A stretch of 4,742 nucleotides of DNA from a virus. Its lineage: Duplodnaviria > Heunggongvirae > Uroviricota > Caudoviricetes. Positions 1-4,742 of this stretch are shown in pieces. Positions within the stretch are counted from its first letter, which is position 1; each line of letters starts with the position of its first letter. The stretch lies in the IMG/VR virus record IMGVR_UViG_2740892258_000009. One strand, 5' to 3'. Under the pieces are notes generated by a model. That model was not told where the DNA came from. It was given only the letters and a program-made list of their open reading frames with translations, and ran no database searches. Both the position numbers and the translations under genes were made by a program.

Positions 1-325
1 ATGGATTGGGTTATGAGCCCGTCGTCCGGTGATGCTCTTCTCTGTTTTGCAAAAAAGGACGGTACCAGCCGGAAGCAAGGGTACAAACTGGTACCGCCAG
101 GACTACACACAGCATAAAGTTGTGGTGCCGGGTGCCTCCCGGTGCCTGGCGAAGGTTGCACACCAGGCGGGTGGGTATCCACAGAAGGTCGACTGTCAGC
201 CTCAACCTTAACCCGCGTGCGCTGAGCCGCATTCACCACAACGCTAAGGATTCTCTCTGGTTGAAAATACTTAGCTGTTATGTGCCTGCTTTTAGCCACA
301 TCAGGCGAGGTGGACCTGGTTATTC

Positions 326-961: not shown

Positions 962-1069
962 GTTGCTAACGAATCATCCGGTCATTCATACGCCACCGGC
1001 GGCTACTTCGTGGGCGTCCTGCCTGTCCGTGATAGCTTACATTATGTTGCTACTTAAAGTAGCAAAAAT

Positions 1070-1098
1070 CAACAACAAAAAGTAGATATTTGTTGTTG
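1070..1098. repeat. 10-bp perfect inverted repeat CAACAACAAA-N9-TTTGTTGTTG; possible operator or weak AU-rich leftward terminator
   Basis: Arms at 1070..1079 and 1089..1098. On the minus-strand RNA the hairpin is followed by AUUUUUG. It shares the CAACAACAA motif with 326..369. Confidence 0.5.
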
Positions 1099-1283: not shown

Positions 1284-2360
1284 TTACTTTGTAAGTTCTA
1301 GAACTCGTTGAGCCAGCCCTTTAAATTGTTCGTTAAAGGCGTCTCTGCTTGATTTCATTGTATTTAAGGCATGCCCAAATTGCCCTGAATCGCGAATTTG
1401 CTGATCACTGATGGAGAAAACAGGTGTCGCTAGTTGTTGGCTTATTGCGATTAATGAGTTGAAATCGGAAATATGCGCAAGATCATAGGCTGATAAATCT
1501 CCACTGACTGTTGTTTTGTTAATTGCATGTTGCACTTTATCTCGTGGAATTATGCAGGTAATTTTTTCTAGATTTGGCACTAAGATCGAATCAACAGCAT
1601 CACGGATAGCTGCCATCCATTTTTCGAAAGATTTTACAGGTGCTCCTTTACGCGGCCTGTATCTCTGCTGAATCATACCTAGAAACTGCGGTGCATTTTT
1701 AATTGATTGTGAAGAGTTACCATCATTATTTTCTTTAAATAATGCTAATTCTTTGTGCCAGCGAGGTATATTTTTTGAGAGAGAGCGAATTGCTTGCCAG
1801 CAAAAAAAGTCTGGAGCTACAGGTACGATAAAATAGTCACTTGACATGAGAACTACTTCATTTAAACCTCCAACATTAGGGCTGAGATCATAAAGAATGT
1901 AATCAATATTATTCTTCATGGCGATTAGCTGTAATATTTTTGGCAGGTTCCCTGGTATATTTCTTGTAGCAGGAATACCAGCAGCAATTTTTAGAGAAAC
2001 ACTTATCTGTGAATCTAAGTCCGAAACATCTAAATGTCCGGGAAGAAGCAGAAGGTTTTCATGCAGTGTAGGGTGTAATTTTCCCGTTTCTTTTTCAAGG
2101 TATGCTTCAGGTTGTCCGCCATTAATCAAATATTCTACAATAGGTCCAAGAGTTAAGTTATCTCTGCTAGAATAAAAAGAATCTAAACCCTCATCAATCT
2201 TTTCATAGCCAAGAACCATTCCTGTTAGATTACATTGCGAATCAAGGTCAACCATCAATACTTTCTTGCCTTCATCCGCAAGTGCCCATCCAAGATTGAA
2301 GGTTGTTGTGGTTTTACTTACCCCACCTTTATGATTAAAAAAACAAATTGATTTTGTCAT
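1284..2360 (-). CDS. ParA/MinD/Soj-family deviant Walker-A P-loop ATPase with ~110-aa C-terminal extension, 358 aa; orphan (no ParB in window)
   Basis: Walker A at residues 9-18 (NHKGGVSKTT, the KGGxxK[ST] signature), DLDSQ-type A-prime motif (VLMVDLDSQCN) and a hydrophobic-Asp Walker B (IDYILYDLSP). ATG at 2360 with AAAGGA 9 nt upstream. The gene looks AT-richer than the replication gene by eye (not computed). Confidence 0.85.
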   Translation of the reverse strand: MTKSICFFNHKGGVSKTTTTFNLGWALADEGKKVLMVDLDSQCNLTGMVLGYEKIDEGLDSFYSSRDNLTLGPIVEYLINGGQPEAYLEKETGKLHPTLHENLLLLPGHLDVSDLDSQISVSLKIAAGIPATRNIPGNLPKILQLIAMKNNIDYILYDLSPNVGGLNEVVLMSSDYFIVPVAPDFFCWQAIRSLSKNIPRWHKELALFKENNDGNSSQSIKNAPQFLGMIQQRYRPRKGAPVKSFEKWMAAIRDAVDSILVPNLEKITCIIPRDKVQHAINKTTVSGDLSAYDLAHISDFNSLIAISQQLATPVFSISDQQIRDSGQFGHALNTMKSSRDAFNEQFKGLAQRVLELTK

Positions 2361-2461
2361 ATTTCTCTATCCTTTCGACCCCCAGCATATTGTAATTTAC
2401 GCTGGGTGATTATTTTATATTGTTAATGATAATGTTTAATAAAAATAAGAGAGTAAAACAA

Positions 2462-2474
2462 CTATTAGTAATAG
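2462..2474. promoter_or_regulatory. Operator-like 13-bp palindrome CTATTAgTAATAG in the cI/ParA-like spacer
   Basis: Perfect dyad apart from the centre base; same CTATT-N5-TAG architecture as the two 13-mers between cI and cro. Lies ~100 bp upstream of the ParA-like ATG in a 170-bp AT-rich spacer. Confidence 0.3.
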
Positions 2475-2530
2475 CACTTGCTTGATAAATATTATTTTTT
2501 CACCTTTAGTTCTATAGTCTAAACGAAGAA

Positions 2531-3292
2531 CTAAAGCCGGTTGTATTTAATTGATTCGTGTATCAATGCTTTGCCCATAACATAAAGTTGATCTTGGGAC
2601 TTCTCATCAATGTACCATTTCTCATAGGCTGGATTATCCGAAAGAACGGCGAGTTTGTTGCCTTGCATTTGTAGACGTTTAACGTGGAACGTCTTACCAT
2701 AAACGAAAGAGTAAACACCATCAGTTTGGAAGTTGCGAACAGAAATGTCGACAAACAGTCGATCTCCGGAAACTAGAGTAGGGGACATGCTGTCGCCATT
2801 TACAGTCATAACTTTAATATCATCTTGAGAACGATTACCGAAAAGAGAACGGGCATGCTCTGTTGTGAACTCAATGGCGTAGAGCACATCAACATAGTCT
2901 GAAAGCATATAGGTTCCAGGTCCTGCGCTAACGCTAAGATCCAAAACTTCTATCCTGTATACATCGGGTTTTGTTGGATTGGGGATGCTTGCCATTTCCT
3001 TACATCCTTCTCTCTCGCCAACACCATATTCTAAATATGAAGCTGATACCCCCAGAGCCAATGCAAGTTTATTCATGACAGAGGCACGAGGCTTCGCAGC
3101 GCCGATTGTGTATCGCCGCGCCATTTCATATGTAACGCCCACAAGACTTTTGAGTTGGGTGACAGAAATTCCCTTGTTTGTCATTAGCTCGTTTAGTCTC
3201 TTGGCGAAATCTGGATACTTCTGTTCTTCTACCATAGGTAGAAGGTTACTCGCATCACATACGCTAGTCATTTCTATTTTAAGTAGTTGCAT
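2531..3292 (-). CDS. CI-type phage repressor: N-terminal HTH plus C-terminal S24 (LexA-like) autopeptidase
   Basis: HTH segment GISVTQLKSLVGVTYEMARRYTIG; Ala-Gly cleavage dipeptide in LSVSAGPG (residues 123-124 of the 253-aa frame); catalytic Ser in VNGDSMSPT and Lys in FHVKRL, 36 residues apart. Start is uncertain: ATG at 3292, 3271 or 3235 (253, 246 or 234 aa), and the 13-mer at 3274..3286 favours 3271 or 3235. No SD before any of them, consistent with a leaderless transcript as for lambda cI. Confidence 0.9.
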   Translation of the reverse strand: MQLLKIEMTSVCDASNLLPMVEEQKYPDFAKRLNELMTNKGISVTQLKSLVGVTYEMARRYTIGAAKPRASVMNKLALALGVSASYLEYGVGEREGCKEMASIPNPTKPDVYRIEVLDLSVSAGPGTYMLSDYVDVLYAIEFTTEHARSLFGNRSQDDIKVMTVNGDSMSPTLVSGDRLFVDISVRNFQTDGVYSFVYGKTFHVKRLQMQGNKLAVLSDNPAYEKWYIDEKSQDQLYVMGKALIHESIKYNRL

Positions 3293-3333
3293 TCTGCTAT
3301 TTTAAGTAGCATCATCCCTCTGAATTTCAGAGG
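3274..3333. promoter_or_regulatory. Divergent cI/cro control region: two 13-bp direct repeats CTATTTTAAGTAG (3274..3286, 3297..3309) and a 17-bp palindrome CCTCTGAA-t-TTCAGAGG (3317..3333)
   Basis: The 13-mers are 23 bp apart and each is an imperfect dyad (CTA.TT.AA.TAG). Their reverse complements contain TAAAAT, a -10-like hexamer placed to start a leaderless cI message at the 3271 ATG. The 17-bp palindrome overlaps the cro SD (GGAG at 3331..3334). Confidence 0.5.
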
Positions 3334-3341
3334 AGAAAGGT

Positions 3342-3605
3342 ATGTCATCTCAAAACTACACAGAGAAAGCAGTAAAAGCTGCGGGAAAATCTTTATCTGA
3401 AGTAGCCCGTCACTTTGGTTTTAAGTCCACTCAATCCGTCGCTAATTGGGTAATTAACAATCAAGTCCCGTCAGAACGGGTTTTACAACTTTGTGAGTTG
3501 GGAAACTGGTCCGTGACCCCTCATGAACTGCGTCCTGATATTTACCCCAATCCAAATGATGGATTACCTGAGTGCTATTCAAAAGTTAGCGGTTCAGCTG
3601 CGTAA
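3342..3605 (+). CDS. Cro-like early repressor, YdaS-type Cro/CI-family HTH protein, 87 aa
   Basis: Divergent from cI, GGAG SD 7 nt upstream. Motifs typical of YdaS-like prophage Cro proteins (AVKAAGKSLSEVARHFGFKSTQSVANWV... LRPDIYP). Stop TAA at 3603..3605. Confidence 0.85.
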   Translation: MSSQNYTEKAVKAAGKSLSEVARHFGFKSTQSVANWVINNQVPSERVLQLCELGNWSVTPHELRPDIYPNPNDGLPECYSKVSGSAA

Positions 3606-3633
3606 ACGTAACCACAGAAACGAGGAGTTAACC

Positions 3634-4032
3634 GTGGGTAAGCATCACTGGAAAATAGAAAAACAGCCTGAGTGGTACGTGAAAGCTGTCAGAAAAACTA
3701 TCGCAGCGTTGCCGGGGGGTTACGCTGAAGCTGCTGACTGGCTGGACGTAACAGAGAACGCATTATTTAACCGCCTTCGTGCCGATGGCGATCAGATTTT
3801 CCCGCTGGGATGGGCAATGGTTTTACAGCGTGCTGGTGGTACCTCTCAATTTCGAAGCTGCAGGAGCATGCAGCACTGGTCTACAAAATCTTTTGTGTTT
3901 CAGAAAGTAATGACGCCCGCGAGTGTGCAGCTCCGGGCGTCGTGGCGTCGATTGCTTCTGGTTGTGGAGAAACTAACGCATGAACAGTTTAACAACACAC
4001 TACCGTCGCTCGCAACTGTGTGGAGAAACTAA
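3634..4032 (+). CDS. cII-position early regulator, as present truncated by a frameshifting 56-bp tandem duplication (probable pseudogene or altered C-terminus)
   Basis: GTG at 3634 follows a strong SD GAGGAG (3622..3627, 6-nt spacer), in the frame of track ORF 3523..4032. ATGs at 3523 and 3556/3559 overlap cro and lack an SD. The frame stops at TAA 4030..4032 inside copy 2 of the duplication. Assignment to a CII/YdaT-like family rests on gene position plus a loose resemblance and is unverified. Confidence 0.55.
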   Translation: MGKHHWKIEKQPEWYVKAVRKTIAALPGGYAEAADWLDVTENALFNRLRADGDQIFPLGWAMVLQRAGGTSQFRSCRSMQHWSTKSFVFQKVMTPASVQLRASWRRLLLVVEKLTHEQFNNTLPSLATVWRN

Positions 4033-4074
4033 CGCATGAACAGTTTAACAACACACTACCGTCGCTCGCAACTG
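3963..4074 (+). repeat. Perfect 56-bp direct tandem duplication (3963..4018 = 4019..4074)
   Basis: Base-by-base identity of TGTGGAGAAACTAACGCATGAACAGTTTAACAACACACTACCGTCGCTCGCAACTG in two adjacent copies; flanking bases differ. 56 is not a multiple of 3. Confidence 0.95.
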
Positions 4075-4394: not shown

Positions 4395-4742
4395 ATTAAC
4401 CGGCTATGTATGGGATGGTTGCGCTGCATCAGGCATGAAATTATCCAGCGTGGCAATTATGGCCCGCCTGGCTGATTTCAGTAATGACGAAGGTGTGTGC
4501 TGGCCATCAATTGAAACCATTGCCCGCCAGATTGGCGCGGGGATGAGTACCGTCAGAACGGCTATCGCACGGCTGGAAGCAGAAGGCTGGTTAACGCGTA
4601 AGGCGCGTCGCCAGGGTAACCGCAATGCGTCGAATGTTTATCAGCTTAACGTTGCGAAGCTTCAGGCAGCGGCATTTTCTCAACTGTCAGATTCTGACCC
4701 GTCAAAATCTGACGCATCAAAATCTGACGCATCAAAATCTGA
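4384..4742 (+). CDS. Phage replication initiation protein (lambda O-like), N-terminal HTH DNA-binding domain; partial, runs past the window end
   Basis: ATG at 4384 with AGAGG SD 6-7 nt upstream; open to the window edge. [70 protein letters not shown] matches the N-terminal HTH pattern of phage O-like initiators. Position after cro and the cII-position gene matches lambdoid order. Confidence 0.8.
   Translation, partial: MSTKLTGYVWDGCAASGMKLSSVAIMARLADFSNDEGVCWPSIETIARQIGAGMSTVRTAIARLEAEGWLTRKARRQGNRNASNVYQLNVAKLQAAAFSQLSDSDPSKSDASKSDASKS
4687..4742 (+). repeat. 15-bp tandem repeats TCAAAATCTGACGCA inside the replication gene; candidate origin iterons
   Basis: One degenerate copy (4687..4701, 11/15 matches), two perfect copies (4702..4716, 4717..4731) and a truncated copy to the window edge. 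In frame, encoding SDSDP-SKSDA-SKSDA-SKSD. The repeat is certain; the iteron role is inference. Confidence 0.8.

Follow-up and report, generated by a model that had tools for sequence, protein, structure and literature searches.

A probable lambda/HK022-type operator and promoter region with a covarying inverted repeat at PR in a lambdoid prophage of Escherichia coli

Introduction

Where a phage repressor gene begins, and which of the repeats in front of it serve as its operators, is the question raised by a stretch of viral DNA (Caudoviricetes) taken from the IMG/VR record IMGVR_UViG_2740892258_000009. The stretch, 4,742 nucleotides long and called the window throughout, carries the repressor gene cI on the minus strand (2531-3235) and a cro-like gene on the plus strand (3342-3605). 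A preliminary description of this DNA had noted two identical 13-mers, a 17-bp palindrome close to cro and three possible cI start codons. Reckoned from the longest cI frame, the intergenic region seemed too short for a tripartite operator as in lambda, and the palindrome was thought to be either a distinct operator or an RNA hairpin limiting cro translation.

Here, the control region is compared with those of its relatives. The comparison makes it quite probable that positions 3226-3341 represent the right operator and promoter region of an immunity module of lambda/HK022 type in a lambdoid prophage, with a regulation that is inferred from the arrangement of its sites. The window contains divergent genes, a repressor with helix-turn-helix (HTH) and S24 domains, repeated operators over predicted promoters and a left operator (OL) set, which are the sequence features of a lambdoid CI/Cro switch. 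The region is thus an uncharacterised example of a switch of the lambda/HK022 kind, and it includes an inverted repeat for which this kind of switch offers no explanation.

Results

Occurrence of the control region and its relatives

The window is lambdoid prophage DNA from E. coli. Its positions 2400-3700 are 100% identical to many E. coli chromosomes, including those of IHE3034, APEC O18 and NCTC86, and the control region is carried by 206 of 5426 complete E. coli genomes, and the immunity type was also met in Klebsiella, Citrobacter and Gibbsiella. No isolated phage with this immunity type was found; the nearest CI of an isolated phage is that of HK639 (59% identity). The cI and cro genes are divergent and lie 106 bp apart, an arrangement common to all relatives. 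On identical DNA the Prokaryotic Genome Annotation Pipeline (PGAP) places an XRE/S24 regulator starting at 3235, a 'transcriptional regulator' (cro) and ymfL, with a ParA-family gene downstream of cI. The cro-like gene encodes 87 amino acids with an HTH of the YdaS family (Pfam YdaS_toxin, E=2.2e-11), and a YdaS-family cro-like gene occupies the same position in every relative.

For the comparison, the DNA of protein relatives (66-85% identity to CI) was retrieved and 12 control regions were aligned. A scan of IMG/VR with a DNA pattern added 94 stretches, giving 65 unique regions. Contigs scanned by alignment with the CI protein mostly belonged to other immunity types, which share only the C-terminal domain, and were used as outgroups.

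Two 13-bp repeats at PR are conserved as probable operators

The sequence CTATTTTAAGTAG is present at 3274-3286 and 3297-3309, 23 bp apart. Direct reading and a repeat search showed that the coordinates given in the preliminary description for the 13-mers, the palindrome, the cro ATG (3342) and the three in-frame minus-strand ATGs of cI (3292, 3271 and 3235) are all exact, and that 3293-3341 measures 49 bp. When up to two mismatches were allowed, the motif CTAYTTWAAGTAG had three sites in the window (six strand matches) versus 0.40 expected, and none of 200 shuffles equalled that number. The third of these sites, at 1050-1062, is located outside the interval that had been described before. In every relative a right operator, OR2 (CTATTTTNAGTAG), is centred 45 bp from the cI ATG and a second one, OR1, 67-68 bp from it, the latter being a perfect palindrome CTACTTTAAGTAG in most of them. 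Since their position and sequence are kept in every relative and a homologous pair is found at a PL-like promoter, the earlier proposal that the 13-mers are repressor operators is supported by the comparison. The two copies are accordingly named OR2 (3274-3286) and OR1 (3297-3309).

A position matrix derived from the operators of the family ranks five sites in the window: OL1 (22.1 bits), OR1 and OR2 (19.3 bits each), a site CTACCATAGGTAG (13.5 bits) and OL2 (12.9 bits). The next-best site in the window reaches 7.0 bits, and shuffled sequences yield 0.037 sites of at least 13.5 bits.

Both 13-mers are integrated into a predicted rightward promoter (PR) on the plus strand. In the family, PR consists of TTGNNN directly after OR2, 17 bp containing OR1, and YATYAT. 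In the window the -35 element is TTGCAT (3287-3292), of which TTG is invariant in the protein-retrieved set, and the -10 element is CATCAT (3310-3315), so that OR1 fills the spacer while OR2 lies between the -35 elements of PR and of the predicted repressor maintenance promoter (PRM). Of 37 unique relatives, all have A2 and T6 of the -10 element and 35 have T3; the -35 and -10 elements are 17 bp apart, or 16 bp in two lineages. Among 37 unique leaders, the six positions following the -10 are mostly pyrimidines (purines account for 0-32% at each, and for 8% at position 6), while position 7 is a purine in 89%. This pyrimidine run followed by a purine predicts that transcription from PR starts at 3322, the seventh nucleotide after the -10. 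The Shine-Dalgarno (SD) sequence of cro is GAGGAG (3330-3335), and AGAGGAG is invariant in the close group.

Two other registers of PR were considered and rejected. An extended -10, TGcTATTTT (3295-3303), would place the whole palindrome in the cro mRNA; only about half of the relatives have its TG, and four lineages lack T6 of TAYTTT. A -10 at TAGCAT (3307-3312) lies just 14 bp from TTG, and the predicted start would still fall within the palindrome arm.

A weak operator-like sequence, CTATCTGAGGTAG or CTATCAGAAGTAG, was also seen within the cro codons LSEVA, at 3393-3405 in the window and at +160 to +164 from the cI start in the loci L027, L028, L033 and L034. It scores 8.6-9.6 bits in the relatives and 3.6 bits in the window, and its distance of about 92-96 bp from OR1 is close to four times the 23-bp spacing of the operators; such a resemblance could be a chance effect of the coding sequence.

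cI most likely starts at 3235, at the end of a conserved predicted promoter

Because PGAP starts the gene at 3235, the CI proteins of HK022/HK75 (42% identity) align with the window CI from residue 1 of that start, and the ATG at 3292 is missing in most relatives, 3235 is most likely the true cI start, giving a protein of 234 amino acids and a control region of 106 bp instead of 49 bp. The 3292 ATG arises from the PR -35 TTGCAT read on the opposite strand and is lost wherever this hexamer reads TTGCAA, TTGATT and the like.

Upstream of the ATG at 3235, the 12 aligned loci share 36 nt that read, in leftward direction, an invariant ATGAC(T), 17 nt of free sequence, a hexamer TAAYCT, TCTACCT and the ATG. 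This arrangement predicts a weak conserved sigma-70 promoter, PRM, with a -35 ATGACT (3266-3271, minus strand) that includes the in-frame upstream ATG kept in relatives (3271-3269; the 12 protein-retrieved loci all have GTCAT), a spacer of 17 nt (3249-3265) and a -10 TAACCT (3243-3248), followed by the 7 nt TCTACCT. The A of the ATG is the eighth position after this -10 and the predicted +1, and no SD sequence precedes it, so the cI mRNA is predicted to be leaderless. The spacer varies in sequence while its length is fixed: 12 classes differing at six or more of 17 positions contain no indel, the length is constant in all 65 unique IMG/VR regions, and the variability is not biased to third codon positions. 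The -10 variants found in these regions (TAATCT, TAACCT, TAAGCT, TACTCT, TATGCT and TAACAT) all retain T1, A2 and T6. Of the two leaderless starts suggested previously, 3235 is therefore favoured by PGAP, by the HK022 alignment and by the conserved PRM. A leaderless start at 3271 is geometrically unlikely, as the sole -10-like hexamer upstream (TAAAAT, 3281-3276) ends 4 nt before it.

On the cI ATG, a perfect palindrome with 8-bp arms, CTTCTACC-ATA-GGTAGAAG (3226-3244), was found that had been overlooked in the preliminary description. It is centred on the start codon, and its core at 3229-3241 is the 13.5-bit site CTACCATAGGTAG, a putative weak operator resembling OR3. The palindrome is nearly invariant among relatives, whose unambiguous operators also contain each of its half-sites. 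In HK75/HK022 the annotated oR3 (TGAACCATAAGTTCA) is likewise centred on the cI ATG (in HK75, oR3 at 2994-3008 and the cI start at 3001), and other immunity groups have equivalent palindromes in this position. The argument that the region is too short for a tripartite operator hinged on the 3292 start and does not hold for an interval of 106 bp whose third operator-like site sits on the cI ATG; if cI begins at 3235, the control region is plausibly tripartite.

A second operator pair accompanies a predicted PL

The 1050-1062 site is the perfect palindromic operator OL1, CTACTTAAAGTAG, which has the top matrix score in the window. It lies in the spacer of a predicted leftward promoter, PL (1044-1072, minus strand), with a -35 TTGATT (1072-1067), 17 bp containing OL1, and a -10 CAACAT (1049-1044). 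OL2, CAACAAAAAGTAG (1073-1085), is 23 bp from OL1 and is the positional homologue of CTACAAAAAGTAG in relatives. When 17 loci were aligned, PL and PR were found to share the module O2-TTGnnn-4 nt-O1-xAxxAT. The OL1/OL2 pair, with its 23-bp spacing, is situated 1.3-2.8 kb left of cI in every relative despite differing cargo, and 2.2 kb left in the window. An inverted repeat with 10-bp arms, CAACAACAAA and TTTGTTGTTG (1070-1098), encloses the AAGTAG half of OL2; it was seen only in the window's own lineage and is absent from the relatives of the PL alignment.

Just 3' of the predicted PL (965-1030, minus strand) a leader of about 65 nt, CGAACAGGCAGGACGCCCACGAAGTAGCCGCCGGTGGCGTATGAATGACCGGATGATTCG, is conserved in 11 of 13 relatives with one copy per locus. 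Its stem CCGGU/ACCGG shows compensatory changes at three pairs, and no Rfam match was obtained. The leader occupies the place of the putL antiterminator RNA in HK022/HK639, and no clear similarity to putL was found.

The interval between cI and PL corresponds to the position of lambda rexAB. In the window it holds a gene for a 358-aa ParA/AAA_31 ATPase (1284-2360, minus strand), and in relatives (L027-L037) HigB toxin, HipA-like, RelA/SpoT-like, GmrSD-like or PAPS-reductase genes, a variable content typical of morons or defence cargo.

The repressor retains the residues for self-cleavage

The 234-aa product of cI combines an N-terminal HTH (Pfam HTH_3, E=1.8e-5) with a C-terminal LexA-like peptidase domain (Peptidase_S24, E=1.3e-16). 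The LexA-like self-cleavage determinants that had been pointed out before, Ala-Gly, Ser and Lys, are present and invariant across 12 relatives, as A104-G105 (VSAGPG), S149 (GDSM) and K186 (VKRL). In a profile search of the PDB, S149 and K186 were aligned with LexA S119 and K156, by a weak match (E 0.14-0.24), whereas phmmer of CI against the PDB gave no match. These residues make it a reasonable inference that the prophage would be SOS-inducible.

The CI recognition helix VTYEMARRY is kept in all groups. In the IMG/VR loci L038, L046, L117 and L128, short repressors (138-149 aa) without the S24 domain were found together with the same helix, operators and promoter layout, suggesting that one operator specificity is paired with cleavable and probably non-cleavable repressor bodies.

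An inverted repeat links PR and the cro ribosome-binding site

The 17-bp palindrome at 3317-3333 reads CCTCTGAA-T-TTCAGAGG. Its 5' arm (3317-3324) is the PR discriminator and its 3' arm (3326-3333) is part of the cro ribosome-binding site. A single palindrome with 8-bp arms is unremarkable by itself in 4.7 kb, and the significance of this one stems from its conservation. In the close group alone, only CCTCT and AGAGG of the arms are fixed, and covariation was no better than in shuffles; the pairing signal emerged only with the wider IMG/VR set. In every group of this set, an inverted repeat extends from 1-4 nt past the PR -10 into the SD sequence or the spacer between SD and AUG. In 14 representatives at least nine different arm pairs occur, all reaching this far, with loops of 3-14 nt. 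Arm pairs in relatives are CCTTGG/CCAAGG, CTCTTGG/CCAGGAG, CCTGTGA/TCACAGG, CCTATGA/TCATAGG, CCTGTGAG/CTCACAGG, CCTTCTG/CAGGAGG, CTTACC/GGTAAG and TTCATTC/GAATGAA.

As a covariance-model alignment misaligned the divergent groups, shuffle tests were performed for each sequence. In 13 of 14 divergent representatives the hairpin was more stable than composition-matched shuffles (p <= 0.013 each), and Fisher combination gave p ~7e-20 for representatives that are not fully independent. The repeat is present as a single copy per locus and never at PL. Scored with the CI operator matrix it reaches -15.8 bits in the window and stays below zero in all relatives save one, at 5.5 bits. The helices of CI (VTYEMARRY) and Cro (KSxQSVANW) are nearly constant across groups with differing arms. 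That the arms differ yet stay paired while these helices hardly change indicates selection on base pairing and argues against a sequence-specific protein site. Judged by this comparison, the palindrome between PR and cro is an instance of a family-wide inverted repeat kept by base pairing, not an operator.

The predicted PR start at 3322 lies inside the 5' arm, which spans -5 to +2, and the predicted PR transcript therefore cannot form the hairpin. RNA from 3322 onward has no significant structure, and neither a consensus scan nor the alignment of relatives revealed an alternative conserved rightward promoter upstream. The structured PL leader, by contrast, begins after the predicted PL start. 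In the window the free energy of the hairpin is -10 kcal/mol in the sense and -10.8 kcal/mol in the antisense direction (z = -2.6 for the latter). Imperfect stems mostly contain G-U pairs on the cro-sense strand, nine leaders being 2-5.5 kcal/mol more stable in sense versus two in antisense; this asymmetry weakly favours a hairpin on the sense strand, but the SD sequence limits changes in the 3' arm and so confounds the comparison. Of the two roles first envisaged for the palindrome, the comparison thus favours a hairpin over a distinct operator, while an RNA hairpin that limits cro translation conflicts with a transcription start inside the 5' arm.

Three further identities of the palindrome were tried and rejected. 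A degenerate fourth CI operator at 22-23 bp spacing is contradicted by the negative matrix score in all but one relative, a LexA box has a different spacing, and an intrinsic terminator would need a T-run, which follows on neither strand.

Other features of the window

Downstream of cro lies a cII-like gene (YmfL/CP76). Within its reading frame a perfect tandem duplication of 56 bp (3963-4074; 2.0 copies, 100% identical) was found. As 56 is not a multiple of 3, the duplication shifts the frame, and the open reading frame (ORF) from 3634 stops at 4032. Further downstream, a 15-bp tandem repeat TCTGACCCGTCAAAA (4693-4742, 3.3 copies, continuing past the end of the window) lies inside an HTH_36 replication-initiator gene and may represent origin iterons like those in the lambda O gene. 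In the early-left region (49-272, minus strand), adjoining a frameshifted ORF, a match to the small RNA STnc100 over the full model length was obtained, below the Rfam threshold (40.3 bits versus a gathering score of 47, E = 2e-6).

Discussion

A model for the switch

In the arrangement described above, dimers of CI bound at OR1 and OR2, 23 bp apart, would block PR. CI at OR2, which adjoins the weak PRM, could stimulate this promoter as lambda CI does, and PRM (ATGACT, 17 bp, TAACCT) would start at the A of the ATG at 3235 and give a cI mRNA without a leader. The site on the cI ATG might serve negative autoregulation or be a target of Cro. Looping between OL and OR would be possible; such looping has been demonstrated for HK022 CI (PMC8053113). 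RecA-stimulated cleavage at Ala104-Gly105 would lead to prophage induction. A leaderless mRNA for a CI-like repressor opposite a YdaS-type Cro, with overlapping footprints, has been demonstrated for paaR2 of CP-933P (PMC8630535), whose supplements give no start-site coordinates.

Several points weigh against this model. Every promoter and start in it is a prediction, and operator binding and CI cleavage are deduced from sequence. PRM is weak by consensus, with four matches among the six -35 positions and three among the six of the -10, and a consensus scan proposes another leftward promoter, TTAAAA-18-TAAAAT (3305-3276), within the operators. OR2 is centred at -45 from the predicted PRM start, which makes activation uncertain; in lambda, OR2 is centred at about -42. 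The OR3-like site overlaps cI codons 1-3 and the PRM discriminator, and its conservation could have other causes. The hairpin between PR and cro begins at -5 from the predicted PR start and is left unexplained. Finally, the 12 codons from the ATG at 3271 to that at 3235 are free of stops in 45 unique sequences, an openness that a purely non-coding promoter would not predict.

Alternative readings of the cI start and of the inverted repeat

The open frame raises the alternative that the repressor has 246 amino acids, or exists in two forms, with translation from ATG 3271 at least on long leftward transcripts and with 3236-3271 being coding and promoter at once. Stops number 0 of 225 codons in this frame versus 13 and 15 of 225 in the other two, and for 12 independent spacer classes zero stops has P = 0.013 by shuffles; the pattern used for retrieval included the ATG and left the frame unconstrained. 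CI relatives with 66-85% identity are frequently called by gene callers at 245-246 aa, with an N-terminal extension 'MT......NLLP', and an A-rich AAAAUAGAA lies upstream of AUG 3271. However, this AUG has no SD sequence, the geometry of the upstream hexamer speaks against a leaderless start there, and HK022-type and other relatives start at MV... Those parts of the extension that are conserved coincide with the -35, the -10 and the discriminator. Its six central codons accept almost any amino acid and variation is greatest at the first codon position, which leads us to read the segment as a promoter with an embedded ATG held in frame. A 246-aa form is therefore improbable in our judgement, and 3235 is kept as the start. 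Ribosomes using ATG 3271 on longer leftward transcripts could be one reason why the ATG is in frame. Also rejected was a small leftward ORF that would begin in the PR -10 read on the opposite strand and be coupled to ATG 3271, since its start codon is missing in the TATTAT and TATTCT lineages.

For the inverted repeat three readings were compared. That it forms a cis-acting hairpin in the cro mRNA, masking the ribosome-binding site and limiting Cro translation, is doubtful but ranks first among them: the 3' arm always covers the SD sequence or the spacer to the AUG while arm sequence and loop length vary, the stem is stable in the window, and G-U pairs prevail on the sense strand. Against it stand the 5' arm, which begins 1-4 nt past a -10 with invariant A2 and T6 and is missing from an mRNA starting at 3322, the lack of significant structure in that mRNA and of a conserved promoter further upstream, the example of the PL leader, whose structure begins only past its predicted start, and the SD constraint on changes in the 3' arm, which confounds the G-U asymmetry. 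An arm in the untranscribed discriminator DNA of PR would be accounted for if the hairpin belonged instead to a leftward transcript antisense to cro, for example from a CII-dependent promoter of the repressor establishment type (PRE), acting like IS10 RNA-OUT on RNA-IN. With its loop and 5' arm, this RNA would then complement the cro mRNA at the ribosome-binding site and 5' end, and what lies upstream of the PR start would be required only for closing the stem. In nearly all groups the predicted PR start indeed maps to the loop or the top of the stem, the window sequence folds as stably in antisense as in sense, the cII-like gene follows cro, and for the YdaS/YdaT module of CP-933P the cloning and assay of a PRE promoter are documented (PMC8630535, primer table). 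Nevertheless, nine leaders have C-A mismatches in the antisense stem where the sense stem has G-U pairs, no terminator was found leftward of the hairpin, and no conserved leftward sigma-70 promoter was detected in the first 420 nt of cro, although an activator-dependent promoter could escape such a scan; the antisense reading is unlikely.

Least probable by far is that the palindrome binds a dimeric protein, Cro or another phage regulator, on the PR start. Its centre at +3/+4 of the predicted PR start is a classic repressor position, the close group keeps the arms and varies the centre, and HK022-type and other related immunity regions hold the CI operator OR1 in the slot just after the PR -10. 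Yet the arms differ among groups in sequence, length and spacing while the Cro and CI helices are nearly the same, and symmetric changes occur within one Cro type, such as CCTGTGA/TCACAGG to CCTATGA/TCATAGG. One lineage has a 1-bp insertion, no second copy is present at PL or elsewhere, and the score against the CI operator matrix is strongly negative. The repeat and the open frame can also be joined in one reading, which we consider rather doubtful: the repeat would be a previously undescribed control element of lambdoid switches, either a PRE-type antisense stem-loop or a sense hairpin from an unrecognised upstream start, and CI would be made in two forms. PRM may give the leaderless 234-aa form, and long transcripts one extended by 12 residues, which would explain the always-open frame.

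Significance and comparison with known switches

Defining the operators, the promoters and the cI start corrects widespread gene calls of 246 and 253 aa, and the resulting map of operators and promoters provides a testable basis for induction studies. In this family, repressor bodies that are either cleavable (S24) or short share a single DNA-binding specificity. The unexpected item is the inverted repeat kept by compensatory change over the PR start and the cro ribosome-binding site, which, if functional, would be a control layer absent from the lambda paradigm; the interest of the locus rests mainly on this unexplained repeat and on the always-open upstream frame.

As in lambda, cI and cro diverge across about 100 bp, the repressor consists of HTH and S24 domains, operators repeat at 23-24 bp and overlap PR, PRM is weak, the cI mRNA is leaderless (predicted here), and a second operator set with PL is found about 2.2-2.4 kb away. 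In contrast to lambda, the operators are 13 bp long (CTAYTTWAAGTAG) rather than 17 bp, and OR1 takes up the spacer of PR and does not cover the -10. The third site, 45 bp from OR2, coincides with the PRM start and the cI ATG, whereas in lambda it is located between the -35 and -10 of PRM. Two recognisable OL sites, a YdaS-family Cro and the inverted repeat across the PR start further set the region apart.

With HK022/HK75 the module shares a homologous CI C-terminal domain and an OR3 centred on the cI start codon with the common core CCATA(A/G)G, and with HK022/HK639 a structured leader just 3' of PL, which is putL in those phages and shows no clear sequence similarity to their put RNA here. 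Operator specificity is different, being TGAAC-N5-GTTCA in HK022 and ATAAC-N4-GTTAT in HK639. In HK022, OR2 occupies the PR spacer and OR1 lies 3' of the -10; here the operators are placed one slot further upstream, and the slot after the -10 is taken by the non-operator inverted repeat. In HK022 about 700 bp separate OL from OR (PMC8053113), compared with 1.3-2.8 kb in the present family.

The PaaR2/YdaS module of CP-933P from E. coli O157:H7 likewise sets a YdaS-family Cro against a CI-like repressor across about 100 bp, with overlapping footprints of both proteins, PL/OL analogues and toxin or accessory cargo co-transcribed with the repressor (PMC8630535). The leaderless repressor mRNA predicted here was demonstrated there by 5' RACE and N-terminal sequencing, and an inverted repeat from discriminator to ribosome-binding site was not reported (PMC8630535). 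PaaR2 is small and lacks an S24 domain, although short CI variants do occur in the present operator family, and its operator sequence differs, consisting of GTTTAGTAA-type repeats. Taken together, the module differs from lambda and HK022 in the sequence and length of its operators and in their slots relative to PR, with an OR3 on the start codon as in HK022, a Cro of the YdaS type as in CP-933P, and a covarying repeat at PR.

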